Part shown: in pieces, positions 28,830 to 55,310 of the stretch
How positions within the stretch are numbered: the first letter of the stretch is position 1
How the letters are laid out: the number at the start of each line of letters is the position of its first letter
Origin: Escherichia coli
GTDB taxonomy: Bacteria > Pseudomonadota > Gammaproteobacteria > Enterobacterales > Enterobacteriaceae
Assembly (NCBI RefSeq): GCF_013122565.1
Contig: NZ_CP053258.1
Length of the DNA stretch: 64,000 bases
Strand: one strand, 5' to 3'
Translations under genes and position numbers: made by a program
The notes under the pieces: model-generated
Databases searched by the model: none
What the model was told of the DNA's origin: nothing
Seen by the model: the letters and a program-made list of their open reading frames with translations, nothing else

Positions 28830-28839
28830 GCATCTTTCC

Positions 28840-29928
28840 TCACGGCAGGCGGTGGCGGGCTTGATAATAAGCCTGCCAGTGAGCTTCTTTATGTGTGGCG
28901 ACTCGCTGTTCGAAGTAACGGCGCAGACGAGCGCGATCTTCTTCGTTATCTTTGACGATGGTTCCGGCAATACAGTCCACCAGATCGGCTGGCTCACCTG
29001 CGCGATTCGCTAAAAACCAGGCGCGGACGCCCACAGCGTGGGCCACGTTCACGGCTTCAGCGGTGGACATAATCGCTGTTAGTGTATCCATTGACGTTTT
29101 CTTTTCGCCGTTGGCACGCAGATCGCGGAAGGTGCGGACCAGTAACTCCAGTACCGCGTCAGGCACTTTATGCGGAATACCGCTATGGGCCAGCAAACGC
29201 GCCGAAGCACTGGCGACCAGTTCCAGCTCCTGAGCGAAATCCATAATCGGAAAGACAGTTTCAAAATCGAAGCGACGCTTTAGCGCAGCACTCATCTCAT
29301 TGACGCCGCGATCGCGCGTATTGGCAGTGGCAATAATATTAAAGCCTTCCCGCGCATAGAGTTGACTGGCTTCACCAGTGAGTTCCGGCACCGTCATCAC
29401 CCTGTCAGAAAGCATACCTAACAGACAGTCTTGCACTTCCAGCGGTGTACGCGTTATCTCTTCAAAACGGACGATTTTGCCGTCGCGCATTCCCTGGTAA
29501 AGCGGGGCAGGGACCAGCGCTTCCGTTGATGGACCATGATTGATAAGCAGAGCGTAGTTCCAGCCGTACTTGATTTGATCTTCAGTGGTAGATGCGCCGC
29601 CCTGGATGGTTAACCCGGCATCGCCGCTAATAGCGGTTGCCAGTAATTCAGACAGGAGAGATTTTGCGGTGCCCGGTTCCCCCACCAACATCAAACCGCG
29701 CCCGGTGGCAAGAGTGACTAACATACGTTCGACAGCAGAGGGACTAATCACGACTTTACGGCTAATATTTTGCGCGCTATCGCCAAGGATAAAAGCACGT
29801 GCCGCAGGCAAACTTAACTGCCAACCGGGCGGGCAAGGTGCGTTATCATTTTGTTTTAATTTTGCCAGTTCATCGGCGTATAACACAGCGGCAGGCGGAC
29901 GCTGCAGATGATTATTCTGCGGTGACAT
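28840..29928 (-). CDS. yehL: MoxR-like AAA+ ATPase YehL, 362 aa
   Basis: Walker A LVGEPGTAKS and Walker B-like hydrophobic-DE segment seen; start ATG 29928 (MSPQNNHLQRPP...); 10-nt gap to yehM. Confidence 0.85.
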   Translation of the reverse strand: MSPQNNHLQRPPAAVLYADELAKLKQNDNAPCPPGWQLSLPAARAFILGDSAQNISRKVVISPSAVERMLVTLATGRGLMLVGEPGTAKSLLSELLATAISGDAGLTIQGGASTTEDQIKYGWNYALLINHGPSTEALVPAPLYQGMRDGKIVRFEEITRTPLEVQDCLLGMLSDRVMTVPELTGEASQLYAREGFNIIATANTRDRGVNEMSAALKRRFDFETVFPIMDFAQELELVASASARLLAHSGIPHKVPDAVLELLVRTFRDLRANGEKKTSMDTLTAIMSTAEAVNVAHAVGVRAWFLANRAGEPADLVDCIAGTIVKDNEEDRARLRRYFEQRVATHKEAHWQAYYQARHRLP

Positions 29929-30037
29929 ATATTCATCCCTGAAATGTATTAATGAAATAAACGATATTTTACGCGCAATAAATGTTTGGTGCATTAGTTG
30001 TTTGAGCGAAAAATATCTGGAAAGCAGATCACAGTAA

Positions 30038-31105: not shown

Positions 31106-31238
31106 TAAAGCTATACTCGTCATACTTCAAGTTGCATGTGCTGCGACTGCGTTCGTTCACCCCGGTCACTTACTTTAGTAAGCTCCTGGGAATTCACTCG
31201 CTTATCGCCTTCCTGCAACTTGAATTATTTAGAGTATA

Positions 31239-31541: not shown

Positions 31542-31600
31542 CGCTTTCCCGTTGGTAAGTCGTGTTGAAAACGGGCAGTCGCATCACTGCCCGTTGTGTT

Positions 31601-35257: not shown

Positions 35258-38200
35258 TTATTCAAACAGGGCTTCAATATCATTAATTAACTCGCTGGTG
35301 GTGATGGCATCGAGTACGGAGAACTGCGCTTCCTGAGTTGAATTATTCCTCCAGCCATAGCTTTCTGCTTTGCCTTCCCATAGCCACAGCTTGCTTAAGA
35401 GCTGCTCGGCGCTAAGTTCGGCTGGCGACATACCCACAGCAAAGCCTTCATCGATTTCCATGATTAACGACCAGCGGCCCAGGGGTTTGATCATCCAGCA
35501 GATCCAGCCTCCATCCTGTGGTTCGCCCTTTATCCAGCCTTTATTCGCCAGCCCCATGACCCGACCACTCGGGCATTTTCTGCCTGCCCAGCGGGTCAGT
35601 TCGCTGGCGTTGCGCTCGGCTTCTGTCAGGGCGTAACTGTTACGGTCAAGCTGACGGAACGGTGGTAGCAGTTCGTAGTCGGCAAAAAGCTGACCAAAGG
35701 CGGCAGCATCCGTCGGTGATATTTCCAGAACGTGAGGAATACCAATAGAGATATCGCCTTCCGGCAGGGTGAAAAGATCATCGTCAGCGGTGCTGTAACT
35801 GTTATCTTCCGCCACGCGAAAGCACGCCAGCAGCTGGTTTTCGGCGCTATAAACGCCCCAAATCAGACGACGGGTTAAGTGGCGAACCAGCGGGTGCTCA
35901 ACCAGGAAAAGCTGAAAGTTTTCCGGCGACCAGCGGCGGCGCAGGCACATGGCGGATTCCAGCCTTGCTACCTGCTGGGCGGCGACGGTACGCGCATCTT
36001 TTTTCAGCAATTTGTAGCGGTTTACCGCCTCATCAGCCCGCGATTCATCATCGCTTTTATTGGGTTTAGGTAAGTCTTTCAGGCGGCTGCCGGAAACATC
36101 ACGCACAAACGGTTTTAAGGTTTCATCAAAGCTGACGGTGAACTGGCGTGAGCCGAAATCCAGCAGCAACGAACCGTTATCATCCAGACCGAGATCCGGG
36201 GCCAGGCGATCTTCTAGCTCCGCCACCGTGAGTTCGCGGCTTTCGGCAATGTCGGCAATTTTTTCTTTTGCCCGCTCCTGTAATGCTTTGAATTTCAGTT
36301 TCTGGGCGATGCCGTTAAGTTGCATCAAGGCGATATCACTACCGATAGTGGCGAGAATATCCAACCCAACGGTGGCGCGTTTATGCTGGGATTCACCAGG
36401 CCAGGCACGGATTAATGGCGTCAGTTTGCGGGCGGTGTCATCGTTACCGAGAACACCTAACGCGTTGAACGCCCAGCTCTCTTTCGACGGCGCGCCAGCG
36501 GTCTGCCAGGCGGTAAACAGATCCCAGGCAAATCCCGCCAGTGAGTCGGGGGTACAGGCATCTTTCACCTGCAATAATCCCGGATACAGTGCCTCTTCCT
36601 GAGGGAAGCGGAGCATTTCACCGAGGTAGAGTAGGGCGCTATCGGGCAGTGATTGGGCGTTTGCTTTTAATACCGGGCGCGTCCAGAGCGATGGCTGATA
36701 AAAGGCCGGAAGAGTGGGGATTTTTGTCGGGTGATTATCTAAGGGATCGAGCGCAAGCAGAGCGTTCACCGCGTCTGTTACTTCCGGCTGGTTATAACGC
36801 CGGGCGATTTCTTGCAGTAATGGCTGATGACCGTTTTCGGTAAGCATACGCAAGGCAGCGCGGGCGTTATCCTGTGCTTCACCGGCTTTGCCGAGCGCGG
36901 CAGGCAGCAGGCCGGTAATGGCGTGTTCCGGGTATTTCAACAGCCAGCTACGGGCGTCTTGTCGTAGGGTTTTGAGTTTGTTGAAGGCGCGGGCAATCAG
37001 TGGCGCTAATTCGATAGCCGCAAAATATTGTGCTATAGGCAGCGCTTCTTGCGGATAGCGAGATGCTGAGTGGATAAAACCTGTTAAACCAGCAAGTCGA
37101 AGATGCAACATTACTTGTTTTGCACCTGTATGTGGTTCTTTACTAAGGATGTTCCACATCTCGATAGCTTTATTAATGGGTAAAACATGGAGTGAAGAAA
37201 GATTCCATTCGCCCTGATAAGGGGAGTTATAGGACTTAAAAGCATCAATCAGCGCTGAATAATCTTCACGCTGCCAGGCATCCAGTGCTATTTCTGGAAC
37301 ATCAATATAGCCTCTATGTTTGTTCCAATCCCAGCGGTTGAATCCCAGGGAGGTCAGAAAAGCTTTTTCTCCCTCAGCTTGCTGATGAGGTTGCCAGTTA
37401 TGCTGCACTTGCAGTGTTTTGCTTTTTGTTTCATTTATTGTACAGAAGGATTCTAGGGATAATGGTGCTAAATCCAGCACCGAAATCGTCGATTTTTTCT
37501 TTTTAGCCAGCCAGGGCGGTGAGATTAGTACGGCAGGCAGCAAATCGGCGTTCGCATAAACTGAAGGTTGTGTCAGTTGTTGCAGGCATGACTTAAGTTC
37601 GGTAACCGCCGGAGCAGATAGCCAGGGAATTACCTGCTCTGCTAATGTTGGTTGTGAGATAAGCATTGTCATTAGCATCATGCGCCAGCGCTTTTCATCT
37701 TTTTGTGCCAGAAGTTCTGCTAATGCCGCCAGCGCTGCATGTGGAAAGCGAACGAAAGCCTTTGTCATGCGATCGTGGCAACGCTTTCCCTGCTCGCTTG
37801 CATGGATAAGTAGTGTAAGTGCCTGGGGGTGGTTGATATGCATCAACACTTCCCCACATGTGTCACCAGCAGCGTAAGGAGCAAAACGGGCCAGCGCAGC
37901 GACACCTTGCTCCTTGAGTATCGTTGCACACCAGATTTTACCGCCGTAATAATCATCAAATACCTGCCCAGGCTGTCCTGGATAGTATTTTCCCAGTTCT
38001 GCCAATACCTGCTCGTCGGTGGTCGTCAGTTTCAGCCATTCCAGCGCATATAACCCTTTTTGTCCACAAAGATGTCTGGCAATCTCATGAGCTACTTCTG
38101 GTTTTTCCGGCAACAATAGTGCAACCAGTGGCTGGTGCCACGTGGGCATGGTTCCGAGAGCGGCAATCAGTTTGTCGGCGCAGCGCTGCCATACATCGTC

Positions 38201-39016
38201 ATTTGCAAGTGAGAGATGCTTACGCAGGCGCATTTCAACCGAAGCGAAGCGTAACAGATAGCCAGGCTGCCTGTTATCCGGGGTAACCGTAATGAGATGG
38301 GCATCATAATCCCAGTCGAAGCGGATGAATTGCAATGCAATGACAACCTCAGTGGCATATTCCAGACCACCTTCCTGGACAATTTGATCCATTAGCTCTT
38401 CATGATCGTTACGATTGAAGCCTTGTTCCAGCGCAACCAGTACCGCCAGAACCATCGGTGGTAGCGTGGTGCTAATTGGCGAGTCGATAAGGCCTACGGC
38501 TTGTGTAATTGCCTGCTGCCAGTCCAGTGAACAGGTGCTGTAATCGAAGGTGAGCACCTTTTTAAAACGCCGGTGAGTATTCGCGGCGACGGAGCGTAGC
38601 AGGGTTAATTCATTCTCCTGTGGCACAGGAGCGCCAGGCCAGCGTCGATGACTTAGTGTGGTTGGCGCAACCTCTGTCGGTAAAATGATTTGGGTGTCGT
38701 CTGCCAGCCAGGGGAGGTGGTCTCCAGTAAATGCCGGTTTGTCTTGTGGCAAAGGGGTTATTTCCGGGCATTCGATAACCTTGCCGGGCGCAGATGTCGG
38801 TGTCATCACGGATACTTCTTCTACGTAGCCCTTTTTTGTTTTCTCCGTAATCAGCTTCAGTTCCGCTTTTTCCGCCGCTGCAGCATCTGCAAAGCTTTTT
38901 ACCTGGCTTTGCCCGTTAGTACCGACTTTGCCCCAGGTAATATGCAGCTCGTTTCCCTGCTGCTCCACCGCCCAGAATTTATGTGATTTTTCATCCTGAT
39001 AAATATAGGTTTTCAT
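35258..39016 (-). CDS. MolR-like giant protein, paralog 1 (1252 aa): N-terminal WGR domain plus YehI-like body
   Basis: N-terminus MKTYIYQDEKSHKFWAVEQQGNELHITWGKVGTNGQ (WGR signature); body shares blocks with YehI; 9-nt gap to yehI. The corresponding K-12 locus (molR) is a pseudogene by my recollection. Confidence 0.8.
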   Translation of the reverse strand: MKTYIYQDEKSHKFWAVEQQGNELHITWGKVGTNGQSQVKSFADAAAAEKAELKLITEKTKKGYVEEVSVMTPTSAPGKVIECPEITPLPQDKPAFTGDHLPWLADDTQIILPTEVAPTTLSHRRWPGAPVPQENELTLLRSVAANTHRRFKKVLTFDYSTCSLDWQQAITQAVGLIDSPISTTLPPMVLAVLVALEQGFNRNDHEELMDQIVQEGGLEYATEVVIALQFIRFDWDYDAHLITVTPDNRQPGYLLRFASVEMRLRKHLSLANDDVWQRCADKLIAALGTMPTWHQPLVALLLPEKPEVAHEIARHLCGQKGLYALEWLKLTTTDEQVLAELGKYYPGQPGQVFDDYYGGKIWCATILKEQGVAALARFAPYAAGDTCGEVLMHINHPQALTLLIHASEQGKRCHDRMTKAFVRFPHAALAALAELLAQKDEKRWRMMLMTMLISQPTLAEQVIPWLSAPAVTELKSCLQQLTQPSVYANADLLPAVLISPPWLAKKKKSTISVLDLAPLSLESFCTINETKSKTLQVQHNWQPHQQAEGEKAFLTSLGFNRWDWNKHRGYIDVPEIALDAWQREDYSALIDAFKSYNSPYQGEWNLSSLHVLPINKAIEMWNILSKEPHTGAKQVMLHLRLAGLTGFIHSASRYPQEALPIAQYFAAIELAPLIARAFNKLKTLRQDARSWLLKYPEHAITGLLPAALGKAGEAQDNARAALRMLTENGHQPLLQEIARRYNQPEVTDAVNALLALDPLDNHPTKIPTLPAFYQPSLWTRPVLKANAQSLPDSALLYLGEMLRFPQEEALYPGLLQVKDACTPDSLAGFAWDLFTAWQTAGAPSKESWAFNALGVLGNDDTARKLTPLIRAWPGESQHKRATVGLDILATIGSDIALMQLNGIAQKLKFKALQERAKEKIADIAESRELTVAELEDRLAPDLGLDDNGSLLLDFGSRQFTVSFDETLKPFVRDVSGSRLKDLPKPNKSDDESRADEAVNRYKLLKKDARTVAAQQVARLESAMCLRRRWSPENFQLFLVEHPLVRHLTRRLIWGVYSAENQLLACFRVAEDNSYSTADDDLFTLPEGDISIGIPHVLEISPTDAAAFGQLFADYELLPPFRQLDRNSYALTEAERNASELTRWAGRKCPSGRVMGLANKGWIKGEPQDGGWICWMIKPLGRWSLIMEIDEGFAVGMSPAELSAEQLLSKLWLWEGKAESYGWRNNSTQEAQFSVLDAITTSELINDIEALFE

Positions 39017-40450
39017 TGCAAATTCCTTTTAATCAAACAGTGATTCAATATCGTTAATCAGCTCGCTGGCAGTGATGTCGTCGAGCACGGAGAAGGGATA
39101 AACCGATTTGCGCGGCGTCAGTTTGTACAACTGAATGTGCTCAATTTTTTGGTTATCGCTGATTTCGGTGACGGGCAATCCAACACAGAAGCCGGGTGTC
39201 ACACTCAGTTCGACGTAGCCATCATCCACAGCTTTATAAAATGAGTAATAGCCGCCACCATCCAGAACATCGCCCCGTTGCCAGCCTTTATTCATCAGCC
39301 CGGCGACGCGCCAACTCGCTGCCTGGCGACCAGCCCAGCGCTGCAAATCGTTGCTGTTTTTTTCTGAATCAGAGAGCTGAGACCAGGGGCGATCAAGTTG
39401 ACGGAACGGTGGCAGGAGTTCGTAGTCAGAGAACAGTTGGGCAAATTCAGCAGCCTGTGGGGCCGGGATTTCCAGCACATGCGGGATACCGATACAGCCC
39501 TGCGCAAGGGTAAACGGGGTATCCTGACCGTCGCTAAAACTGCCATCCTCCGCCACGCGAAAACAGCAAATAAGGTGATTATCAGCGTCATAAATGCCCC
39601 ACATCAGACGTTGGGTGATATGACGAACCAGGGGATGCTCAACCAGAAACAGGCGGAACTGTTCTGCAGTCCAGCGGCGACGCTGACACATGGCGGCTTC
39701 CAGACGCGAAATCTGTTGTGCAGCTACCGTGCGGACATCTTTTTTCAACAACTTGTAGCGATTTACCGCTTCCTCAGCCAGCGTTTCATCATCGCTTTTG
39801 TTCGGTTTGGGCAGGTCTTTCAGACGGTTGCCGGAAGTATCGCGCACAAACGGTTTTAAGGATTCATCAAAGCTGACGGTGAACTGGCGTGGGCCGAAAT
39901 CCAGCAGCAGCGAACCGTTATCATCCAGACCGAGATCGGGCGCTAACCGGTCTTCCAGCTCTGCGACAGTGAGCTGGCGGCTTTCGGCAATCTGGGCGAT
40001 TTTAGTTCTAGCCTGATCCTGCAAGGCTTTAAATTTTAGCTTTTGCGCAATGCCGTTAAGCTGCATCAGGGCGATATCGCTGCCGATAGCAGCAAGAATA
40101 TCCAGCCCGACAGTGGCGCGTTTATGCTGGGATTCCCCCGGCCAGGCGCGGATGAGCGGGGTGAGTTTGCGGGCGGTGTCATCGTTACCCAGAATCCCCA
40201 GTGTGGTAAATGCCCAGTTATCTTTAGCTGAGCCACTGGCAGATTCCCAACTGAGGAAGAGATCCCAGGCAAAATCGGCAAGAGATTGCGGGGTACAGGC
40301 CTCGATTACCTGTGTAATTCCTGGGTAAAGGGTGGCTTCGCGGGGGAAAGAGAGCATGGTGCACAGGTGCAGGATGGCTGAATCTGAAAGTGCCTTGCCG
40401 TTACTGCGCAGAAGCGGGCGGTGCCATACTTCTGGCGAACACCACCCAGG
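39017..40450. repeat. about 1.4 kb direct repeat (copy A) spanning the 3' part of paralog 2 and its downstream junction
   Basis: Near-identical by eye to 42866..44300 (offset 3849 bp); only scattered substitutions over the first about 1.2 kb; spurious plus-strand ORFs recur at identical offsets (39196/43045, 39798/43647, 40050/43899). Confidence 0.8.
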
Positions 40451-42865
40451 GAGTTTAGCGATTTTCTGCGGATAGTTTTCCAGCGGATCTGCTGCTAAAA
40501 AGTCGGTAAGTGCAGTCATTACCTCAGGTTGTTGGTAACGGCTGGCAATTTTTTTCAGCAACGCGAGATGACCATTATTGGCCAGGTAGCGTAATGTCAT
40601 CCGGGCATCTTGTTGTTCTTTAACTGGTTTACTCAGCGCAATGGGCAGCAGCCCGGTAATGGCATGTTCCGGGTAGGTGGTGAGCCAATATTCAGCGACA
40701 TCTCGTACGGATTTTAACTGGCAAAATGCGCGGGCCATCAGCAGGGCAACTTCAGTGGAACCGAATTGAGCGGCGAGGGGAACCGCCTCCTTAGGGTTTA
40801 CCAGGGCATAACGCAACAGACCTGGTACCGTAGATAGACCAAATCGCTCAACCACTTTTTCAGCACCCACGAGGTGCATGTGTGAGAGTCCATTCCAGAT
40901 TGAGAGCGCTTTCTCTGCTGGTAGACGAGTGAGTATGGATACAGAAAAGGTAATAAAACCTTCATAATCATACTTTGGTCGGGTATTTAACAACGATTCA
41001 TAATCTTCCGTTTCCAGCAGACGAATGGCCGTTTTTGTTACGCCCCATTTAATATCAAATCTTTCTGGATCAGGATTATTCTCATCAAATGCTCCGCTTC
41101 TGAATCCCAGGCGGCGTAAGACTTCAGCAGTAGAAGGTATTTCTGCTTCGGGTTGTGGCTGAGGTTTGGGGCCAATGGACTCCAGAGGTAATACGGGTAA
41201 TGTAAATATCGTCGTGGCTGATTTATTCTTTTTCTTCAGCCAAATTGGATTAGTTAATATACCGGGTAACTCACAAGCATTGGCTATCTCTTCTTTAGCA
41301 TGCAATTGAGGGAAATAACTGAATAAAAGTTGTTTCTGTTCCTCACTCAACCAGGGCATTGTATTACGCAAGGTTTGAGCATTACCTAATACAATTTGTT
41401 CCATCAGGCGAGAATACCTCAGATTTTTAGCACTAAGCAAAGCTGCAGTAAGGGCATAAAGCGCCGATTCTGGGTACTTCGAAGCCGAAATTTCGACACC
41501 TATGGCACATTCCTCTTTGATAAACAACGTAACGACATCAGGATGGTTAATTTCCTGAAGTGCGTGTCTGACAGGATAACTATCGTTAACGCCCTCTTGC
41601 AGACGTGACAGCGCATTAAGACCTTGTTCACGCAGTAGGGTTTTAATACAACGCTTCGTCATATCGCCTCCCCATCCCGTTGTGAGTTCAAGTTGATGGA
41701 AATGCTTCAGCAGACACGTTGCTTGTGGGTCAGTTGTGACAAGGGAAAGCCACTCAATCTCTGGGTAATCATGCATAGGGGCAATTTCCAGGGCTATCTG
41801 ATTGGCAATATCTGGTTTTTCTGGTAGCAAAAAAGCAATTAATGGGCGTCTGCGGGCAGGCAGTGAAGGGAGAGCATCTATGAGTTTATTAGCACAGCGT
41901 TGCCAGGTTTCCTCATCTGTGTGCGAAAGGTGTTCTCGTAAACGTAACTCTATTTCGTCGCTGAATCCATATTTGTAGCGCATGTCGGAAATATCGTGGC
42001 TAAGGCTTACTACAGGTAGATAATAATTGTCTGCCATTTCCCCTCTTCTCAGCGCACTAAAAAGACTATTGTAATGAAGTTTTAAAGTGGCATTTTTTGT
42101 AGGATCGGTATTTGCGTCGTCAGTCATTTGTACATGCTGTATAGCGATAACTAACTCAGTGGCATACTCAAGGCCTCGCAGTTGCACTATGCTATCCAGC
42201 CATGTATGAGGGCGACCGGGGCAGCCGATAATTAATCTTGTTAGTGTCAATATGGCGTCGGAAAGCAACGATCCGTCTTGCTGTAATTTATGGATGCGCG
42301 AAATAGTTTCCTGTAACGCCAATTGCCATTCTGACTGGCATTGGCTGACATCGAGCTTTTGCAGACAGGCAAGGTAAAATGCTGCCCAATATGGGTACTT
42401 TTTTAGTTGCATCCAGAAGAAACCATCTTTATCAACAATGTCCAGAGGATCATTAATCAAGTGACGATGGCTAAACGGCGCGGGTTCATCATTGGCAAAA
42501 ATAACAATTGACTCACCGTCCTTCAGCCAGGGCGGCGTTTCCAACGTGGGCATCGCTTGTGGCTGTGCCGTTTCAGGCGTTGTGAAGTTTCCGGTTGGTA
42601 TTGCTAACTCTTGTACTGAAATTGTGCTTGATATCGGAGAATTTATGATGGTTTCTGGCGAACCATGCTTCACATATCCCTTCTTCATCTTCTCCGCAAT
42701 CAGCTTCAGTTCCGCTTTTTCCGCCGCTGCAGCATCTGCAAAGCTTTTTACCTGGCTTTGCCCGTTAGTACCGACTTTGCCCCAGGTAATATGCAGCTCG
42801 TTTCCCTGCTGCTCCACCGCCCAGAATTTATGTGATTTTTCATCCTGATAAATATAGGTTTTCAT
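39029..42865 (-). CDS. MolR-like giant protein, paralog 2 (1278 aa)
   Basis: Same WGR N-terminus; C-terminal about 470 aa near-identical to paralog 3; 12-nt gap to paralog 1. Confidence 0.8.
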   Translation of the reverse strand: MKTYIYQDEKSHKFWAVEQQGNELHITWGKVGTNGQSQVKSFADAAAAEKAELKLIAEKMKKGYVKHGSPETIINSPISSTISVQELAIPTGNFTTPETAQPQAMPTLETPPWLKDGESIVIFANDEPAPFSHRHLINDPLDIVDKDGFFWMQLKKYPYWAAFYLACLQKLDVSQCQSEWQLALQETISRIHKLQQDGSLLSDAILTLTRLIIGCPGRPHTWLDSIVQLRGLEYATELVIAIQHVQMTDDANTDPTKNATLKLHYNSLFSALRRGEMADNYYLPVVSLSHDISDMRYKYGFSDEIELRLREHLSHTDEETWQRCANKLIDALPSLPARRRPLIAFLLPEKPDIANQIALEIAPMHDYPEIEWLSLVTTDPQATCLLKHFHQLELTTGWGGDMTKRCIKTLLREQGLNALSRLQEGVNDSYPVRHALQEINHPDVVTLFIKEECAIGVEISASKYPESALYALTAALLSAKNLRYSRLMEQIVLGNAQTLRNTMPWLSEEQKQLLFSYFPQLHAKEEIANACELPGILTNPIWLKKKNKSATTIFTLPVLPLESIGPKPQPQPEAEIPSTAEVLRRLGFRSGAFDENNPDPERFDIKWGVTKTAIRLLETEDYESLLNTRPKYDYEGFITFSVSILTRLPAEKALSIWNGLSHMHLVGAEKVVERFGLSTVPGLLRYALVNPKEAVPLAAQFGSTEVALLMARAFCQLKSVRDVAEYWLTTYPEHAITGLLPIALSKPVKEQQDARMTLRYLANNGHLALLKKIASRYQQPEVMTALTDFLAADPLENYPQKIAKLPGWCSPEVWHRPLLRSNGKALSDSAILHLCTMLSFPREATLYPGITQVIEACTPQSLADFAWDLFLSWESASGSAKDNWAFTTLGILGNDDTARKLTPLIRAWPGESQHKRATVGLDILAAIGSDIALMQLNGIAQKLKFKALQDQARTKIAQIAESRQLTVAELEDRLAPDLGLDDNGSLLLDFGPRQFTVSFDESLKPFVRDTSGNRLKDLPKPNKSDDETLAEEAVNRYKLLKKDVRTVAAQQISRLEAAMCQRRRWTAEQFRLFLVEHPLVRHITQRLMWGIYDADNHLICCFRVAEDGSFSDGQDTPFTLAQGCIGIPHVLEIPAPQAAEFAQLFSDYELLPPFRQLDRPWSQLSDSEKNSNDLQRWAGRQAASWRVAGLMNKGWQRGDVLDGGGYYSFYKAVDDGYVELSVTPGFCVGLPVTEISDNQKIEHIQLYKLTPRKSVYPFSVLDDITASELINDIESLFD

Positions 42866-44300
42866 TGCAAATTCCTTTTAATCAAACAGTGATTCAATAT
42901 CGTTAATCAGCTCGCTGGCAGTGATGTCGTCGAGCACGGAGAAGGGATAAACCGATTTGCGCGGCGTCAGTTTGTACAACTGAATGTGCTCAATTTTTTG
43001 GTTATCGCTGATTTCGGTGACGGGCAATCCAACACAGAAGCCGGGTGTCACACTCAGTTCGACGTAGCCATCATCCACAGCTTTATAAAATGAGTAATAG
43101 CCGCCACCATCCAGAACATCGCCCCGTTGCCAGCCTTTATTCATCAGCCCGGCGACGCGCCCACTCGCTGCCTGGCGACCAGCCCAGCGCTGCAAATCGT
43201 TGCTGTTTTTTTCTGAATCAGAGAGCTGAGACCAGGGGCGATCAAGTTGACGGAACGGTGGCAGGAGTTCGTAGTCAGAGAACAGTTGGGCAAATTCAGC
43301 AGCCTGTGGGGCCGGGATTTCCAGCACATGCGGGATACCGATACAGCCCTGCGCAAGGGTTAACGGGTTATCGTGACCGTCGCTAAAACTGCCATCCTCC
43401 GCCACGCGAAAACAGCAAATAAGCTGATTATCAGCGTCATAAATGCCCCACATCAGACGTTGGGTGATATGACGAACCAGGGGATGCTCAACCAGAAACA
43501 GACGGAACTGTTCTGCAGTCCAGCGGCGACGCTGACACATGGCGGCTTCCAGACGCGAAATCTGTTGTGCAGCTACCGTGCGGACATCTTTTTTCAACAA
43601 CTTGTAGCGACTTACCGCTTCCTCAGCCAGAGTTTCATCATCGCTTTTGTTCGGTTTGGGCAGGTCTTTCAGACGGTTGCCGGAAGCATCGCGCACAAAC
43701 GGTTTTAAGGATTCATCAAAGCTGACGGTGAACTGGCGTGGGCCGAAATCCAGCAGCAGCGAACCGTTATCATCCAGACCGAGATCGGGCGCTAACCGGT
43801 CTTCCAGCTCTGCGACAGTGAGCTGGCGGCTTTCGGCAATCTGGGCGATTTTAACTCTTGCCTGATCCTGCAAGGCTTTAAATTTTAGCTTTTGCGCAAT
43901 GCCGTTAAGCTGCATAAGAGCGATATCGCTGCCGATAGCAGCAAGAATATCCAGCCCGACAGTGGCGCGTTTATGCTGGGATTCCCCTGGCCAGGCGCGG
44001 ATGAGCGGGGTGAGTTTGCGGGCGGTGTCATCGTTACCCAGAATCCCCAGCGCGGTAAATGCCCAGTTATCTTTAGCGGAGCCACTGGCAGATTCCCAAC
44101 TGAGGAAGAGATCCCAGGCGAAATCAGCAAGAGACTGCGGAGTACAGGCCTCGATTACCTGTGTAATCCCGGGGTAAAGGGTGGCTTCACGGGGGAAAGA
44201 GAGCATGGTGCACAAGTTCAGGATAGCTGAGTCAGGAAGTGCCTTGCCGTTACTGTGCAGAAGCGGGCGATGCCATACTTCTGGCGAACACCAGGTGGGG
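42866..44300. repeat. about 1.4 kb direct repeat (copy B) spanning the 3' part of paralog 3
   Basis: See copy A. Confidence 0.8.
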
Positions 44301-46618
44301 AGTTTGGCGATTTTCTGCGGAAAATTATCGAGTGGGTCGCAGTTAAGGACATCTAACAAACCTGTAAGCACTTCTGGCTGATTATAGCGGTGGGCAATTT
44401 GTTCCATTAACGGCTGATGCCCATGATGAGCCAAATAGCGTATTGCCATCACAGCATCCTCACGTTCACTGCCCGGTTTGCCGAGTACAGCAGGTAATAG
44501 ACCTGTAATAGCATGTTCCGGATAGGTTAATAACCAACGCTGTGCGACGTCACGTACAGATTTTAGCTGACGAAAAGCGCGTGCCATTAATAGCGCCACG
44601 TCGGTTGTACCAAAACGTGCGGCTAAAGGAATGGCTTCCTGAGGTACGACTAAGGCGTGACGCAGCAAGCCGGGTAATGTGGGAAGACCGTAATAGTCCA
44701 CTACTTCGCATGCGTTAATCAGATGTAGGTGAGTCAGTGCGTTCCATATTTTCAGTGCTTTATTTTCTGTTAGCTGAAGCAATACAGACACATTGACAAG
44801 GATATGACTTGCCCACCGAGGTTTATCCCAGATCTTTAATAAAGCTTCGTAATTGTCTTGCTCGAAAAAATCAATGGCAGCCTGAGGTATACCCCAACCA
44901 AGCTCTTCGCAATGGAAGTTCAACAAATCCAGGATATCTTTCGCTGATGGGGATGGCGCAGATGGCTCAGTCAGATTTTTTGTTGCGGGGATAGATTCCA
45001 GGGGGGAAAGAGGTAATACCCGGAGAGTGAGGTTGATACCAGCAACCTTTTTCTTTTTTTTCACCCATGAAGGGGCGATCAATATACTAGGTAACTCATT
45101 CTGATGAGCAATTTTTTCGCTGGACATAAGCTGAGGAAAATAACTAAATAAAATTTGTTGCTGTTTTTCGTCAAGGCAGGGTAGCGTTTTATGTAAGGCT
45201 TGCGCATTACCCAAGATGATGCGCTCCAGTAAACGATAATAGCGCGGGTTATTTGTGTGATTTAAGGCTTTTGTTAATGCATAAAGTGCAGCTTCTGGAT
45301 GTAAATTTGTTGCGCATTCCACTTCACTGATACATTCTTCTTTTATTAATATATTAATGGCGTCAGGATGATTAACTTGTGTAATTAGATTTTTAACTGA
45401 ATAACTATCCTTTATCCAACGCTGAAGAAGCGGAAGAGCTTTTACCCCTCGTTCGCGCAGTAATGTCGCAGTGCATTTTTCAGCCATCTGCCAGTCGTTA
45501 TAGCGCTTAAGTTGGTTAAGATTCATTAATTCATTGAGTGCCTGCGCATCTGTGGCAACGATATCCAACCATTCCATTTCTGGGTAATTAACACATTGCA
45601 CTAAATCAAGGACAATTTGATTAGCAATTTCAGGTTGTTCAGGCAAAAGAAAACCAATTAAAGGACGTTTACGTGGAGACAGGAAAGGCAACGCTTGAGT
45701 AAGCTTTTTCATGCACCGTTGCCATGTTTTTTCATCAGTGCGCGAGAGATGATTTCGCAAGTGAAAATCTACAGTGCTGAAGCCGAACTCAAAACGTTGT
45801 TCTGATATTGTGTTACTGAGAATAAGCGTTGGTACGGAATTATTTGTAAAAAAATTGTATTCCATGCGAACATACAAAAGGCATTTATTTAATGCATCAC
45901 AATTTCCTGGATCTTGATTTTGATCATCAGATATCTGAATTTGCTGCAATAGCAAGACTAATTCGGTCGCGTATTCTACCCCATGTTGTTGCACCAGATA
46001 ATCAAAAAGATCATTGACACTATCGCTATTTTGCATAAGTAACTTGACCAGCAAAAAGAATGCATCGGAGAAAATAGAACCGTCTATATTTTTCTGCTGA
46101 ACGCGCATGATTGCTTCATCCCGGCCTCGTTGCCATTCCGGGCGGCAGTCACTCACATCAAAATGCTGTAATTGTGCAAGAAAATAGTATTCCTCATATT
46201 TGTTTTCCCATAAGAATGACCATAACGAGATATCTTTAGCAAACGTGCTGACACTGTCTGCTGGGAATTTCCTACTGCTAAATACTCTCTTCGTTTCGAG
46301 AATAATTGGTTCAATGTCTGCAATCCACGGTGGTGTGTCGACATCAGTAATAATTGGATGTTGTTCGCTATCATCATCTGTGGTGGGAACAGCAATCAGC
46401 ATGTTTATATCGTCAGTCGATTTTACATACCCCTTCTTCACCTTCTCCGCAATCAGCTTCAGTTCCGCTTTTTCCGCCGTTGCAGCATCTGCAAAGCTTT
46501 TTACCTGACTTTGCCCGTTAGTGCCGACTTTGCCCCAGTTGATATGCAGCTCGTTGTCTTGCTGCTCAACCGCCCAGAATTTATGTGATTTTTCGTCCTG
46601 ATAGATATAGGTTTTCAT
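42878..46618 (-). CDS. MolR-like giant protein, paralog 3 (1246 aa)
   Basis: WGR N-terminus; divergent, AT-rich N-terminal/central coding region; C-terminus near-identical to paralog 2. Confidence 0.8.
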   Translation of the reverse strand: MKTYIYQDEKSHKFWAVEQQDNELHINWGKVGTNGQSQVKSFADAATAEKAELKLIAEKVKKGYVKSTDDINMLIAVPTTDDDSEQHPIITDVDTPPWIADIEPIILETKRVFSSRKFPADSVSTFAKDISLWSFLWENKYEEYYFLAQLQHFDVSDCRPEWQRGRDEAIMRVQQKNIDGSIFSDAFFLLVKLLMQNSDSVNDLFDYLVQQHGVEYATELVLLLQQIQISDDQNQDPGNCDALNKCLLYVRMEYNFFTNNSVPTLILSNTISEQRFEFGFSTVDFHLRNHLSRTDEKTWQRCMKKLTQALPFLSPRKRPLIGFLLPEQPEIANQIVLDLVQCVNYPEMEWLDIVATDAQALNELMNLNQLKRYNDWQMAEKCTATLLRERGVKALPLLQRWIKDSYSVKNLITQVNHPDAINILIKEECISEVECATNLHPEAALYALTKALNHTNNPRYYRLLERIILGNAQALHKTLPCLDEKQQQILFSYFPQLMSSEKIAHQNELPSILIAPSWVKKKKKVAGINLTLRVLPLSPLESIPATKNLTEPSAPSPSAKDILDLLNFHCEELGWGIPQAAIDFFEQDNYEALLKIWDKPRWASHILVNVSVLLQLTENKALKIWNALTHLHLINACEVVDYYGLPTLPGLLRHALVVPQEAIPLAARFGTTDVALLMARAFRQLKSVRDVAQRWLLTYPEHAITGLLPAVLGKPGSEREDAVMAIRYLAHHGHQPLMEQIAHRYNQPEVLTGLLDVLNCDPLDNFPQKIAKLPTWCSPEVWHRPLLHSNGKALPDSAILNLCTMLSFPREATLYPGITQVIEACTPQSLADFAWDLFLSWESASGSAKDNWAFTALGILGNDDTARKLTPLIRAWPGESQHKRATVGLDILAAIGSDIALMQLNGIAQKLKFKALQDQARVKIAQIAESRQLTVAELEDRLAPDLGLDDNGSLLLDFGPRQFTVSFDESLKPFVRDASGNRLKDLPKPNKSDDETLAEEAVSRYKLLKKDVRTVAAQQISRLEAAMCQRRRWTAEQFRLFLVEHPLVRHITQRLMWGIYDADNQLICCFRVAEDGSFSDGHDNPLTLAQGCIGIPHVLEIPAPQAAEFAQLFSDYELLPPFRQLDRPWSQLSDSEKNSNDLQRWAGRQAASGRVAGLMNKGWQRGDVLDGGGYYSFYKAVDDGYVELSVTPGFCVGLPVTEISDNQKIEHIQLYKLTPRKSVYPFSVLDDITASELINDIESLFD

Positions 46619-46630: not shown

Positions 46631-49600
46631 TTAATCAAACAGTGATTCGATGTCGTTAATCAGCTCGCTGGCGGTGATGTCGTTGAGCACGGAGAAAGTG
46701 GGTGAGGATTGTTTACCATAGCGATCATAAGGGGCGGTGATTTTTACGCTTTCGACAGGCAGCAGGTCGCTATACCCCGTTTCGCCATAAATTAATGAAA
46801 AAGGTTCTGTTTCAAGTTCGAGAGCGCCATAAGGGGTAGATTTGCGCATCGCATAGATGCTGCCGCTTTCTTCCAGACGTTGCCAGCCTCTGCGTTCCAG
46901 CCCGACAATGCGTCCGGCCTGGCAGAGACGTCCGTTCCAGCGTGACAATTCATGGGCATCACGCTCGTTATCCGCAAGGTGGTAACTACCACGATCGAGC
47001 TGTTGGAAAGGGGGAAGCAGTTCGTAATCAATGTATATTTGCCTGAATGCAGCGGCGGATTCAGGGGGGATTTCCAGCACATGCGGAATACCGATGTTTC
47101 CTGCTGGCAGCGTGAATAGCTCATCCTGCGCATCGCTGTAAGTGCTGTCTTCTGCCACACGAAAACAGGTGATAAGGGCGTTTTCATCGTTATAAACCCC
47201 CCATAACAGCCGTCGGGTTAAGTGACGTACCAGCGGATGCTCCACCAGAAACAGGCGGAACTGCTCTGCCGTCCAGCGTCTGCGCTGGCACATAGCCTGC
47301 TCCAGACGATCAATCTGCTGGCTGGCAATGGCGCGCACATCTTTCTTCAATTGTTTAAAGAGGTTAACGGCGTCAGTTGCCAGTGTTTGATCATCGCTCT
47401 GGTTTGGTTTGGGTAAATCTTTCAGGACTTTGCCGTTTGCGTCGCGAACCACGGGTTTCAAGGTTTCGTTAAAACCAACGGTGAATTGACGTGGGCCGAA
47501 ATCAAGTGTCAGCGAGCCATTGCTATCAAGCCCTAAATCTGGAGCCAGGCGGTCTTCCAGTTCAGCCATAGTCAGCCCACGGTTTTCAGCAACTATGTTG
47601 ATTTTCTCGCGGGCATGTTCCTGTAATGCTTTGAATTTAATTTTTCGCGCGATGCCATTAAGCAGCATTAGCGCAACATCGCTGCCAATATCAGCTAATA
47701 CATCCAGCCCGGACACCGCCCGTTTATGCTGGGATTCCCCAGGCCAGGCGCGGATGAGCGGAGTTAATTTACGCGCGGTGTCGTCATTGCCTAAAATCCC
47801 AAGCGAAGTAAATGCCCAGTTTTCTTTTGCTGGGGCACCAGCTTCTGTCCAGGCGGTATACAGATCCCAGCCAAAGTCAGCCAGTGATTCGCGGGTGAAG
47901 GTTTCTCTAATGATATCCAGCCCAGCGTAGGCGGTAATGTCGCGTGGAAAGCTCAACATTGTGCCGAGGTGGCGCATAGCGTCATCTGGCAGAGGCAGGT
48001 TGTTACTTTTAAGCCGAGGTCTGTGCCATAAGGTGAACTGATAAAAGCCGGGCAGTGGGGCGATTTTTGCAGGATATTCTTCCAGTGGGTCGCTATCAAA
48101 TAATGTTGCCAGCGCAGCTAAAACATCAGGTTGATTATATCCTTGGGCGATTTCCTCAATCGTTTCTCGCTGGTTTAAATTCACCAGCAGGCGGAGCGCC
48201 TGGCGGGCACAATCACGATCTTTTCCTTTTTTGCCCAGGGCCACAGGAAGTAGCCCGGCGGCGGCATGGCGCGGATAATCAGTTAGCCAGTTTCGCGCAT
48301 CTTCATAAGACATTTTTTTCTGTAATTGTTGCGCCATCGGTAAGGCCAGTTCACTGACACCGAGGAAAAAGGGGAAGAAGCACAGGCGTCGTGGATCACG
48401 TTGCAGGCAGGTCATAAATGCAGGTATGGCGGCGCTACCAAAAAGTGCCAGAATATTTCCCTCACCAGAGTAGTTATCTTCTTTGACTATCTGGTTAAGA
48501 AAAGAAATGGCCTGTTGACCAGGCAGGTAACAGAGGGCAATAAGATTCCAGCTTTTGTATGCATTGTTATGGTATTGCACAAATTCAGCATTCAATGCTG
48601 GAAAATCGAAGCGTAGCAGGGCATCAACGGCACTTTGTGGCGCCGGAATTTTTTCGTATATTTTTTCTCCGCTCTCCCGCCATTTTTCAAAACCAAGATG
48701 CCACAGTATTTGTTGCTCCGGTGTAAGCGGTATTAAGTGTTTCTCCCAGCTTGCTTTTTTCATCGGTGCCAGGTCGGTAAACAATGTTTGTTTTGTCGCC
48801 TGCTGTTGGGCTATTTGCTGGAAGCGGGTGATAAGGTAAGTACGGGTCAGTTTTTTGGCAATCTCTGGAGTGATATCCGAAACAGAAGGAACTGGGAGCA
48901 CAGGAAGATCAAACACCGGCGTATTTTTCTTTTTCTCTTTGGTCATCCAGGGAGGCGAAACAAACAGCTCTGGCAACATATCCGCAGTGGCATATTCACA
49001 TTCTTCAGCGACTGACTGCGGACGACATTCAGATAAGATGCCAGCGGCTTTGGCATTAACCCAGGGAATGACGTCGCATACTAACTCTGGCGTGATGGTA
49101 ATCAGTTTGATAAGTGCGTTACGCCACTGTGCATCTTCATGTATTGCCAGCAAAGTAGCATAAGCGGCAAGAGCCGCAGCGGGATGTTTTTGACAGGCTT
49201 TGCTTAAGTATTCCAGGTGCTTTTTCTTGCCAATCACACCGAGGATCAGAATTTGAATCGCATCCGGGTGATTCGTTTTCCATAGCCATTTGACAAGATT
49301 TTCAGTCTCGCTGTTGCGCTCGAAAAGATAAGTGGGATTGTCAGAATGCTCTTCCGTAAACTCAAGAAGGATCTGGCTTACACCCCGAATTCCATTATTC
49401 GCCAGCAACATTGCCAGATAAGCGCGAAAATTACGAAAATCACGATACAACGGTGGGAAGTCGTATTTTTCCACTGTACTAAGAGCAGTATCATCGGTTA
49501 TCACCAGTCTTAACCAGGTCATCGCCGGAACGTTTTGGTCTGCATAGCGTAGAGCCATAGCATTGGCAATATCCGGGCGTTCAGGGAGCAGTAACGCCGC

Positions 49601-50437
49601 AAAAGGTTGCCGTGCTGGAGATAGCGAGGGAATAGCCGCGAGTACTTTATCTACACAGCGTTGCCACTCATCTTCTGAAGCGAGTGAAAGATGATGACAT
49701 AGACGTTGATGCCAACTAGGTAGCGATTCTGCTTCGTGATTAGGTGGAATGATGGTGGTTACTGCGCCTTTTACTGGTTTATATCTAAGTTGAATAGCGA
49801 GAAGGGCAATTTCAACGGCGCTTTCCAGACCACAGCGAATGACTAAGTCATCGACCAGTTCATCTGCAGAGTAAGAGTTCCAGAAACTCCAGAGCAATGC
49901 TGCATCAGATTGCGCACTCCCTGTCTGTTGATTACCCTGAACTCGCATTTGTAACTCAGCAAAAGCATGCTGCCAGTTTTCTGGATAAGAACGGTAATTG
50001 TTGTCGGGATCATATGCCCTGGTGTTATCTGCAATACGCTTCCATATCTCACCGTCTTTGCGCAGATAATTGATCTCTCTGGGGCGAGAGCGATGAGGGA
50101 AAGCAAATCGATTAATATCGTCAGTTACCGGAATGACTGCATCATCAGCCAGCCATGGGCGTTTGTTTTTACTCTCAAGGGAAGTTTCAACTTCAGGAGT
50201 GGCTTTGGTGCTGGAGATATGCACGTTTGCTGAAGCATCTTCCACATAGCCTTTTTTCGTTTTCTCTGCGATAAGCTTTAGTTCCGCTTTTGCCGCTGCC
50301 GCAGCATCCGCAAAACTTTTTACCTGGCTTTGCCCTTGGGTGCCAACTTTTCCCCAACTGATATGCAACTCGTTTCCCTGTTGCTCCACCGCCCAGAATT
50401 TATGTGATTTTTCGTCCTGATAGATAAAGCGTCTCAT
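46631..50437 (-). CDS. MolR-like giant protein, paralog 4 (1268 aa)
   Basis: N-terminus MRRFIYQDEKSHKFWAVEQQGNELHISWGKVGTQGQ (WGR); most divergent of the four but retains conserved blocks (TARKLTPLIRAWPGESQHKRA, DYELLPPFQQLDR). Confidence 0.8.
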   Translation of the reverse strand: MRRFIYQDEKSHKFWAVEQQGNELHISWGKVGTQGQSQVKSFADAAAAAKAELKLIAEKTKKGYVEDASANVHISSTKATPEVETSLESKNKRPWLADDAVIPVTDDINRFAFPHRSRPREINYLRKDGEIWKRIADNTRAYDPDNNYRSYPENWQHAFAELQMRVQGNQQTGSAQSDAALLWSFWNSYSADELVDDLVIRCGLESAVEIALLAIQLRYKPVKGAVTTIIPPNHEAESLPSWHQRLCHHLSLASEDEWQRCVDKVLAAIPSLSPARQPFAALLLPERPDIANAMALRYADQNVPAMTWLRLVITDDTALSTVEKYDFPPLYRDFRNFRAYLAMLLANNGIRGVSQILLEFTEEHSDNPTYLFERNSETENLVKWLWKTNHPDAIQILILGVIGKKKHLEYLSKACQKHPAAALAAYATLLAIHEDAQWRNALIKLITITPELVCDVIPWVNAKAAGILSECRPQSVAEECEYATADMLPELFVSPPWMTKEKKKNTPVFDLPVLPVPSVSDITPEIAKKLTRTYLITRFQQIAQQQATKQTLFTDLAPMKKASWEKHLIPLTPEQQILWHLGFEKWRESGEKIYEKIPAPQSAVDALLRFDFPALNAEFVQYHNNAYKSWNLIALCYLPGQQAISFLNQIVKEDNYSGEGNILALFGSAAIPAFMTCLQRDPRRLCFFPFFLGVSELALPMAQQLQKKMSYEDARNWLTDYPRHAAAGLLPVALGKKGKDRDCARQALRLLVNLNQRETIEEIAQGYNQPDVLAALATLFDSDPLEEYPAKIAPLPGFYQFTLWHRPRLKSNNLPLPDDAMRHLGTMLSFPRDITAYAGLDIIRETFTRESLADFGWDLYTAWTEAGAPAKENWAFTSLGILGNDDTARKLTPLIRAWPGESQHKRAVSGLDVLADIGSDVALMLLNGIARKIKFKALQEHAREKINIVAENRGLTMAELEDRLAPDLGLDSNGSLTLDFGPRQFTVGFNETLKPVVRDANGKVLKDLPKPNQSDDQTLATDAVNLFKQLKKDVRAIASQQIDRLEQAMCQRRRWTAEQFRLFLVEHPLVRHLTRRLLWGVYNDENALITCFRVAEDSTYSDAQDELFTLPAGNIGIPHVLEIPPESAAAFRQIYIDYELLPPFQQLDRGSYHLADNERDAHELSRWNGRLCQAGRIVGLERRGWQRLEESGSIYAMRKSTPYGALELETEPFSLIYGETGYSDLLPVESVKITAPYDRYGKQSSPTFSVLNDITASELINDIESLFD

Positions 50438-50539: not shown

Positions 50540-50566
50540 AAGAAAAGGCGCTGTCGATGCAGCGCC
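50540..50566 (-). terminator. intrinsic terminator of metG (stem GGCGCTG/CAGCGCC, U-tract on minus strand)
   Basis: Inverted repeat 50547..50553 / 50560..50566 with AGAAAA (plus) giving UUUUCU downstream on the minus strand, 12 nt after the metG stop. Confidence 0.55.
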
Positions 50567-50577
50567 TTGAAGGGGGA

Positions 50578-52611: not shown

Positions 52612-52742
52612 AGTAGGCATTACTTCTTAATAGTGAAAAGGGGTTAGATAGTACCAAATGGGAAAATGTTAAGTAAGTACTTCTCTATATTCTTCAGGTA
52701 AACTATCAGCTGATGGTTTATCTATACAAAAAAGGAGTCGGG

Positions 52743-54688: not shown

Positions 54689-55231
54689 ATGAAACGTTCA
54701 ATTATTGCTGCCGCTGTCTTTTCTTCTTTTTTTATGAGCGCTGGAGTATTTGCTGCAGACGTTGATACCGGAACATTAACTATTAAGGGGAATATTGCAG
54801 AATCTCCGTGTAAATTCGAAGCGGGTGGTGATTCAGTAAGTATTAATATGCCAACTGTACCAACCACTGTCTTTGAAGGTAAAGCTAAATATTCTACCTA
54901 TGATGATGCAGTCGGTGTAACCAGTAGCATGTTAAAAATTAGCTGCCCGAAAGAAGTTGCTGGTGTAAAACTCTCGTTGATTACCAACGATAAAATAACT
55001 GGTAACGATAAGGCGATAGCCAGTAGCAACGATACTGTGGGTTACTATCTCTATTTAGGTGATAACAGCGAAGTCCTGGATGTTTCTGCACCTTTTAACA
55101 TTGAGAGTTATAAAACAGCGGAAGGTCAATATGCTATTCCGTTTAAAGCAAAATACCTGAAACTGACAGATAGCTCAGTGAATTCAGGTGATGTGTTATC
55201 TTCTCTGGTTATGCGTGTGGCGCAGGATTAA
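54689..55231 (+). CDS. yehD: fimbrial major subunit-like protein YehD, 180 aa
   Basis: Signal peptide plus conserved Cys pair and pilin-like C-terminal beta-strand; first gene of a chaperone-usher cluster. Confidence 0.8.
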   Translation: MKRSIIAAAVFSSFFMSAGVFAADVDTGTLTIKGNIAESPCKFEAGGDSVSINMPTVPTTVFEGKAKYSTYDDAVGVTSSMLKISCPKEVAGVKLSLITNDKITGNDKAIASSNDTVGYYLYLGDNSEVLDVSAPFNIESYKTAEGQYAIPFKAKYLKLTDSSVNSGDVLSSLVMRVAQD

Positions 55232-55310
55232 TAAATAAAATTGTAAGTTTCTCCAGGTAATAAACATGGCCGCTATCCCATGGCGGCCTTTTAATTTAAG
55301 AGGCATTAAA

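Follow-up and report, generated by a model that had tools for sequence, protein, structure and literature searches.

Intragenic AT-richness in a tandem WGR-DUF4132 gene array of Escherichia coli: a probable mosaic-gene pattern with edges at recombination boundaries

A 64,000-nucleotide stretch of Escherichia coli contig NZ_CP053258.1, here called the window, carries between metG and yehK a tandem array of five minus-strand genes of the MolR/YehI family, namely four paralogs with an N-terminal WGR and a C-terminal DUF4132 domain, which we call M4, M3, M2 and M1 in their order after metG, and a yehI-like gene. The middles of M2 and M3 depart sharply in base composition from the ends of the same genes. 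We consider it probable, at roughly 0.6, that this intragenic AT-richness is an ordinary mosaic-gene pattern, in which the middles would stand at an AT-biased substitution equilibrium while the blocks between them would be kept core-like by recombination. With similar confidence, the boundaries of composition appear to be boundaries of recombination and homology and not the edges of recently imported foreign DNA. The array genes are the following, all assigned from open reading frames and Pfam domains.

46631..50437, minus strand: M4, WGR + DUF4132 paralog of 1268 amino acids (aa), with Pfam WGR at aa 7-69 and DUF4132 at aa 1002-1185; first gene after metG
42878..46618, minus strand: M3, WGR + DUF4132 paralog of 1246 aa, identical to QJU27790.1
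39029..42865, minus strand: M2, WGR + DUF4132 paralog of 1278 aa
35258..39016, minus strand: M1, WGR + DUF4132 paralog of 1252 aa
31601..35248, minus strand: yehI-like paralog of 1215 aa, DUF4132 only and no WGR; compositionally flat

Base composition and codon usage

An earlier note on this DNA had described, by eye, regions of M2 (about 41.0-42.5 kb) and M3 (about 44.8-46.4 kb) as more AT-rich than the 3' segments of the same genes, and had quoted two AT runs, which are present at 45343 and 45138. GC content in sliding 400-nt windows bears this out, with minimum ranges of 0.405-0.47 at 41.0-42.6 kb and 0.378-0.43 at 44.8-46.4 kb against 0.52-0.56 in the 3' parts of M2 and M3. At the codon level, M3 aa 50-450 show a GC of 0.36-0.43 with a GC at third codon positions (GC3) of 0.29-0.43, and M2 aa 200-650 a GC of 0.41-0.46 with a GC3 of 0.31-0.41, while the C-terminal thirds lie at 0.50-0.58 and 0.51-0.63, respectively. 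For comparison, GC3 is about 0.55-0.65 in the core genes of the window, and the 5th percentile of 100-codon windows from non-array genes is 0.41 for GC and 0.40 for GC3. The only other genes of the window as AT-rich as the M2 and M3 middles belong to the yeh fimbrial operon, whose genes yehD, yehC, yehB and yehA (54689-59526) show a GC of 0.38-0.45 and a GC3 of 0.31-0.43, in contrast to the flanking core genes.

Change points were placed by maximum likelihood on GC3, with 200 permutations as the null. M3 is partitioned into segments of GC3 0.587, 0.368 and 0.568 by cuts at aa 63 and 756 (46429 and 44350), with a two-segment log-likelihood ratio (LLR) of 19.9 against a permutation maximum of 8.3 (n=200); M2 is partitioned into 0.485, 0.363 and 0.557 by cuts at aa 237 and 681 (42154 and 40822), with an LLR of 15.0 against a null maximum of 7.9. 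Both genes exceed all permutations, so that the profile deviates clearly and a flat composition can be dismissed. The earlier note had further held both regions to be more AT-rich than M1 and the yehI-like gene. This stands for the latter, which shows no composition split (LLR 3.1), but needs amending for M1, which has a dip of its own (two-segment LLR 10.0, null maximum 7.9). In M4 the first two thirds are slightly AT-rich (GC3 0.425 against 0.529), a split that is not significant (LLR 6.5 against 6.8). The segments defined by the change points are:

44350..46429, minus strand: AT-rich type-specific middle of M3 (aa 63-756), GC 0.418, GC3 0.37
40822..42154, minus strand: peak of AT-richness in M2 (aa 237-681, GC3 0.36), inside a type-specific middle that extends to about 42670
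37067..37696, minus strand: local AT-rich dip in M1 (aa 441-650), GC 0.44, synonymous deficit -0.069

Most of the deficit is synonymous, as is seen when the expected GC is calculated by recoding the amino-acid composition of a segment with the core codon usage of the window. The M3 middle is then predicted at 0.499 and seen at 0.418, whereas the M3 C-terminus is predicted at 0.535 and seen at 0.533. The resulting synonymous deficit amounts to -0.080 for the M3 middle and -0.074 for M2 aa 66-650, against about 0 for the C-termini, and makes up about 69% of the drop in M3 and about 76% in M2. AT-ending codons are favoured regardless of translational preference, GGT, ACT and GCT being up alongside AAT, CAA, TTA, CCA and CCT. 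Rare codons are likewise enriched in the middles, with 19.9 ATA per 1000 codons against 1.7 in the C-termini, 22 ACA against 6 and 6.1 AGA against 1.7, and TTA reaching 36. Measured against the host core, the middles are atypical in both base composition and codon usage, as is looked for in horizontally acquired segments. By regression, the three codon positions presumably fit a sequence equilibrated at about 42% GC.

A helical-repeat middle might simply require residues with AT-rich codons (Lys, Asn, Ile, Leu, Phe and Tyr), which alone would lower its GC. The fraction of the amino acids F, Y, M, I, N and K is indeed higher in the M3 middle than in its C-terminus (0.254 against 0.204) and that of G, A, R and P lower (0.206 against 0.264), and GC at second codon positions falls from 41.6 in the C-terminus to 34.4 in the middle. 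We nevertheless rejected amino-acid composition as the cause and regard this explanation as highly improbable, as composition accounts for only about 31% of the drop in M3, where middle and C-terminus differ by 0.115, and about 24% in M2. GC3 itself falls by about 0.20, and the corresponding middles of homologues in Klebsiella, Erwinia and other phyla are free of a drop of this kind.

Conserved blocks and the gain and loss of units

The five array proteins align collinearly and share motifs throughout, the middles included. Among M1-M4, nucleotide identity is 84-98% over the first ~60 codons, 30-60% in the middle and rises again in the C-terminal third, and M2 and M3 are 97-100% identical over their last ~1.4 kb. 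Each WGR-DUF4132 paralog may accordingly be pictured as a type-specific N-terminal and middle part bracketed by a conserved block that consists of a DUF4132 C-terminus, a short junction and the WGR start of the next gene. Two copies of such a block form a direct repeat around the M2 middle:

38823..40468, minus strand: conserved block copy A, spanning the WGR-coding 5' end of M1, the 12-nt junction and the 3'-terminal 1.44 kb of M2; direct repeat, offset 3849
42672..44317, minus strand: conserved block copy B, spanning the WGR-coding 5' end of M2, the junction and the 3'-terminal 1.44 kb of M3; direct repeat

Copies A and B are 97.3% identical over 1646 nt and 98.6% identical over 1166 nt (38823 to 39988). 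Their identity falls abruptly from at least 92% to 57-68% at 40440/44289. The tract in which M2 and M3 are at least 90% identical has its inner end about 30 nt from the M3 composition boundary at 44350, and the other M3 cut, at 46429, falls at the end of the WGR block. M2 was also considered as the donor of the 3' end of M3, given an M2 composition boundary upstream of the tract of at least 90% identity; this is weakened by a fainter M2/M3 similarity that reaches about 40738. Along the alignment, GC3 and inter-paralog identity are strongly correlated (Spearman 0.75, p 1e-5).

Within the tract, paralogs of one genome are closer to each other than orthologues of different strains. Over the last 960 nt, M2 and M3 of the window are 99.1% identical, against 96.4% between the M2 genes of the window and MB53 and 96.6% between the M3 genes of the window and locus L044; over the WGR start, M1 and M2 of the window are 97.3% identical, against 93.5-95.2% for orthologues between strains. 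This relation shows that gene conversion or unequal crossing-over homogenises the blocks, between paralogs as well as between strains. The alignments also show the gain or loss of whole units mediated by these blocks, the M2 unit serving as an example: loci L044, L047 and L048 carry M4-M3-M1-yehI without M2, the unit is absent from 6EVA as well, and PT62 keeps just a fragment of the M2 middle. The single block of the M2-less arrays aligns to both copies A and B of the window.

Concerted evolution of tandem paralogs, which yields conserved ends and divergent cores, is among the closest known processes. The array shares with it paralogs that are closer than orthologues inside the tract, sharp tract edges, and long direct repeats at which a unit is present or absent so that copy number is polymorphic. 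It differs in that the tract spans a gene junction, joining the 3' end of one gene to the 5' end of the next, and in that its edge is at the same time a boundary of codon usage.

Between strains, synonymous divergence (dS) is 0.13-0.24 in the conserved C-terminal and WGR blocks against 0.04-0.08 in the middles of M1, M2 and M4, which is the reverse of the pattern between paralogs. As block dS exceeds middle dS, this comparison suggests that the blocks are mosaics of imported, paralog-derived variants. Across Escherichia species, C-termini within each C-terminal class are 90-95% identical, against 46-86% for the attached middles; the latter have no close partner sequence and diverge two- to four-fold more than the blocks. 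The modularity proposed in the earlier note is well founded in this respect, since the AT-rich blocks are exactly the type-specific segments, are edged by recombining blocks, and in the case of the M2 unit are present or absent between strains.

Substitution flux and a possible recombination-associated force

Substitutions were polarised by parsimony on three-taxon trees. In the M3 middle the flux is balanced, with 209 GC->AT against 203 AT->GC changes and an implied equilibrium GC of 0.411, close to the 0.418 observed. For the M4 middle, 235 GC->AT stand against 190 AT->GC changes, with an implied equilibrium of 0.417 against an actual 0.469. In the C-terminal blocks of all three classes GC->AT changes are in excess (102:62, 55:34 and 102:58; p 0.002-0.03), and the implied equilibrium of 0.40-0.41 contrasts with an actual GC of 0.52-0.55. 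Amelioration, that is, an excess of AT->GC changes toward the host composition, is absent from the M3 middle, and the M4 middle runs the opposite way.

On these counts, all parts of the array genes may be moving toward an equilibrium of about 41% GC. Rare, clade-restricted middles that lack recombination partners would have drifted to this AT-biased equilibrium, while the blocks, which show core-like GC and codon usage, would be held above it by a recombination-associated force, either GC-biased gene conversion (gBGC) or more effective selection. The agent is assumed to be general homologous recombination, no dedicated recombinase or invertase being found nearby. What the earlier note had called relaxed codon constraints holds in substance, given a deficit that is mostly synonymous, a shift to AT-ending codons independent of preference, and an M3 middle at substitution equilibrium.

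In bacteria, recombination is reported to be positively linked to GC3 independently of codon optimisation (Lassalle et al. 2015, PMC4450053). The array resembles what the gBGC hypothesis describes in that its recombining segments have the higher GC3, independent of codon optimality, and in that its GC-rich segments show a non-equilibrium GC->AT flux. It differs in that the contrast lies inside single genes and is large, with a GC3 difference of about 0.20, and in that a bias of conversion would here be inferred.

Nature and origin of the middles

An AlphaFold2 model of M3 aa 60-1246 reached a predicted local distance difference test score (pLDDT) of 87 and a predicted template modelling score of 0.80. 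It shows an unbroken helical solenoid with an alpha/beta domain at its C-terminal end, and only the linker after WGR and an insert of ~45 aa are of low confidence. This insert occurs only in M2 and M3 (alignment columns ~250-300); in M3 it spans aa 232-277 (45788-45925), which are model residues 173-218 with pLDDT <50. Structural neighbours of the model are generic HEAT/ARM proteins, and the middles are predicted to form a HEAT/ARM-like solenoid; the DUF4132 domain alone gave no informative structural match. An inserted element or a different domain in the middle was rejected on account of the intact open reading frames, the collinear alignment and the confident model.

Alleles of one type differ in their middles with a ratio of nonsynonymous to synonymous divergence (dN/dS) of 0.19 for M3, 0.45 for M2, 0.24 for M1 and 0.14 for M4, against 0.07-0.17 in the C-termini. 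Such values indicate real and constrained genes under purifying selection between alleles of one type, with the constraint on the middles apparently somewhat relaxed in M1 and M2. Diversifying selection finds no sign in these segment-wide values of 0.14-0.45, none of which exceeds 1; the diversifying region of the earlier note is real between types and not between alleles of one type.

The earlier note had also considered modular acquisition of foreign middle domains. In a fuller form, an AT-rich donor would have supplied either the middles of M2 and M3 or these genes in their entirety via the conserved flanks, which would permit homology-driven insertion, and their ends later overwritten by conversion from resident copies. 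The synonymous deficit of -0.074 to -0.080 speaks for such an import, being close to the -0.068 of the yeh fimbrial operon, which is of the AT-rich, laterally acquired type and resembles the middles in its GC and rare codons; so do the enrichment of ATA, AGA, TTA and ACA and the fit of the codon positions to about 42% GC described above. In contrast to that operon, the AT-rich blocks of the array are internal to genes with native ends and are homologous to resident paralogs, and neither a donor nor mobility genes were found for them.

The rarity of the middles might likewise point to import. Of 5426 complete E. coli genomes, 8 carry the M3 middle (at 96% identity) and 2 the M2 middle, with 2 further partial copies (at 97.7% identity), as compared with 1637 genomes for the M4 middle (80-95% identity) and 689 for that of M1. 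Clusters at 90% identity comprise 1,786 members for M4, 123 for M3 and 57 for M2, against 21,639 and 7,478 for the two YehI clusters. Over these types the rarer middles are the more AT-rich, with a GC3 of ~0.50 in yehI, 0.42 in M4, 0.37 in M3 and 0.36-0.39 in M2. The other M3 alleles examined are mutually 97.6-100% identical, and the M3 allele of the window differs from each of them by ~5.5% from end to end.

Searches for a source returned no donor lineage. The M3 middle was compared exhaustively with 1.84 billion representatives using HMMER, which recovered its own cluster at 93% identity and everything else at 33-42% or less; among those looked up, the leading relatives outside the cluster are another E. 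coli type and a protein of Klebsiella spallanzanii. Word-index protein searches were uninformative, with an Escherichia protein at 66% as the single match for M3 and a Serratia protein at 29% as that for M2; no donor emerged from either kind of search, phage and plasmid collections lying outside them. The members listed for the M3 cluster are all E. coli, and those listed for the M2 cluster are E. coli with one E. fergusonii entry. MOD1-EC7003, from another Escherichia species, carries a gene of the M3 type that is 72% identical in its middle and equally AT-rich there (GC 0.415 against 0.417), which argues that the AT-rich state of M3 is old within the genus.

Import also sits poorly with the middles being collinear homologues of those of the other paralogs within one continuous solenoid, and with the lack of an amelioration flux. 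The window holds no tRNA gene, and no large open reading frame of transposase or integrase size lies within the array or beside it at its borders with metG and yehK, although other strains do have IS1 elements at this locus. Every MolR type of Escherichia moreover shows a milder form of the split, among them the molR pseudogene of K-12, which is AT-rich over its first 2.1 kb. The difference in GC3 between C-terminus and middle is +0.07 to +0.17 in Escherichia loci against a median of about +0.02 elsewhere, and values of roughly 0 (range -0.05 to +0.08) in Klebsiella, Erwinia and ~30 other taxa led us to reject a family-wide structural property. Taken together, the foreign origin of the middle domains is not borne out, and we consider an import of this kind unlikely.

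Alternatively, the AT-rich middles could be kept for H-NS-type silencing or for internal regulatory signals that hold a costly array off. H-NS prefers AT-rich DNA, and the GC of 0.36-0.44 over ~2 kb is comparable to that of the yeh fimbrial operon nearby; array members are often pseudogenised in other strains, as might be expected if the locus were costly. Promoter-like sites are, however, not enriched in the AT-rich DNA (13 found against 22.6 +/- 5.0 expected), so that internal promoters were discarded as a candidate. The deficit extends across all synonymous classes and equals the neutral equilibrium, which needs no selection for AT, and the core member yehI and the homologues of Klebsiella and Erwinia have no AT-rich block. 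Silencing would more likely be a consequence of AT-richness than its cause, and as an explanation we hold it to be quite improbable.

Several points weigh against the mosaic-gene pattern that we prefer. The M1-class middle shows the opposite flux, with 246 GC->AT against 321 AT->GC changes, its sequences at 64-78% identity being too divergent for reliable parsimony, and polarisation in general relied on outgroups that are 12-28% divergent and on small counts from single lineages. GC3 of the WGR block is only moderate (0.44-0.59), and the trend between prevalence and composition has four points only. The ATA/TTA/ACA/AGA profile of the middles is a classical signature of laterally acquired E. 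coli genes, and an ancient import already at ~42% GC would give the same codon profile. Tandem paralogs in other phyla have variable middles yet almost no GC split, which means that fast divergence alone is insufficient and that an Escherichia-specific factor is needed. Finally, either gBGC or selection could be the source of the GC of the blocks.

Genomic context and partner genes

The array and its neighbours follow on the minus strand in the order metG, M4, M3, M2, M1, yehI-like gene, yehK, yehL, yehM, yehP, yehQ, the window being inverted relative to K-12. PF05406 (WGR) is found at the N-terminus of M1-M4 (aa 7-69, E 1.5e-18 to 2.5e-17) and is missing from the yehI-like gene, and this part matches PDB 2ra8; PF13569 (DUF4132) covers its full profile at the C-terminus of all five array genes (E 3e-46 to 2e-52). 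The M1-M4 proteins are exactly identical to GenBank QJU27788-QJU27791. Further features of this region are:

50578-52620, minus strand: metG, directly preceding the array
50545..50568, minus strand: terminator-like hairpin after metG and upstream of the array
31570..31595, strand unassigned: GC-rich hairpin right after the stop codon of the yehI-like gene
23424..29994, minus strand: yehL (AAA_5, MoxR-like), yehM (DUF5682), yehP (VWA_CoxE) and yehQ (SWIM), from Pfam domains

The array genes lie only 9-12 nt apart, with a conserved junction that reads ...SLFD-stop, AAAGGAATTTGCA, ATG, and the 12-nt junction between paralogs carries a ribosome-binding site. Because of the short gaps and of the hairpins after metG and after yehI, the array probably constitutes one operon, and the hairpin at 31570..31595 probably ends its transcription unit.

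The metG-apbC segment is 99.6% identical to the chromosomes of E. coli strains such as 6EVA, PT62 and UTME-7. The metG gene next to the array likewise matches these strains at 99.6% identity, and the yeh region departs from them by 3-5% over most of its length. K-12 carries molR (pseudogene yehF/G/H) and yehI at the same site between metG and yehK/yehL, with the same Pfam domains. The C-terminus of M1 is 94.5% identical to that of molR, and the middle only 63.6%. K-12 differs further by having one broken copy next to yehI in place of four intact WGR paralogs, and by lacking the M2 and M3 middles, as do >99.8% of complete E. coli genomes. Pseudogenised or truncated array members are frequent, and IS1 or IS4-family elements occur at or near the locus in several strains (loci L001 MB53, L002 6EVA, L003 06-00048, L049 K-12 and L050). 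The metG/DUF4132/yeh region has also been described as the insertion site of a blaCTX-M-15 transposon in a sublineage of sequence type 131 (PMC9334617).

The position of the array between metG and yehK-yehLMPQ places it in the MolR/YehI family, for which linkage to yehLMPQ homologues extends to other taxa. Homologues of yehL, yehM, yehP and yehQ come after the DUF4132 genes in about 26 of 39 loci, and this synteny is found in Proteobacteria, Planctomycetota, Myxococcota, Bacillota, Chloroflexota, Acidobacteriota, Verrucomicrobiota and Actinomycetota. Judged by this gene order, DUF4132 and YehL/M/P/Q appear to form a conserved, uncharacterised five-gene module. M3, YehI, YehK, YehL, YehM, YehP and YehQ had no match in PADLOC-DB 2.0 at E <= 0.01, and in the literature nothing functional was found on DUF4132 and nothing on DUF5682.

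The spacer between yehK and yehL (29995-31238) is 1.2 kb long, as compared to ~0.3 kb in K-12, and consists of two tandem units of ~609 nt that are 86-92% identical. Each unit holds a full-length match to the Rfam family OrzO-P on the minus strand (30040-30113 and 30649-30722; 88.8 and 90.2 bits), so that the spacer looks like a duplicated zor/orz-like type I toxin-antitoxin locus. Elsewhere in the window, Rfam matches at gathering score lie at 9394-9474, 10417-10593 and 61474-61570 and comprise a Peptidase-S11 RNA, two naRNA4 (of the repetitive extragenic palindrome type) and a thiamine pyrophosphate riboswitch upstream of thiM.

Conclusion

Other phyla, too, have tandem paralogs that combine variable middles with conserved C-termini. 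Together with the linkage to yehLMPQ across phyla, this recurrence suggests that the solenoid middle could be the specificity-determining part of a conserved multi-protein system. As a tentative possibility, the tandem WGR-solenoid-DUF4132 genes might represent a repertoire of interchangeable specificity modules for the YehL/M/P/Q system, the blocks serving both as functional core and as portable recombination sites, and such a repertoire would resemble the variable sensor arrays of conflict and defence systems. If this were true, solenoid cassettes would be gained, lost and reshuffled, and their AT-richness would be a by-product of cassette rarity and turnover. The locus is notable for an uncharacterised family, for its linkage to a module found across phyla, and for an array whose copy number, cassette types and pseudogenisation are highly polymorphic within E. 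coli. Under the mosaic-gene pattern that we regard as probable, a striking intragenic jump in GC and codon usage is by itself no evidence of foreign DNA and would here mark the edge of a gene-conversion tract. The array would then offer a clean example of the link between recombination and GC3 within single genes of E. coli, with a GC3 of 0.37 against 0.57 in segments that presumably share operon and expression.

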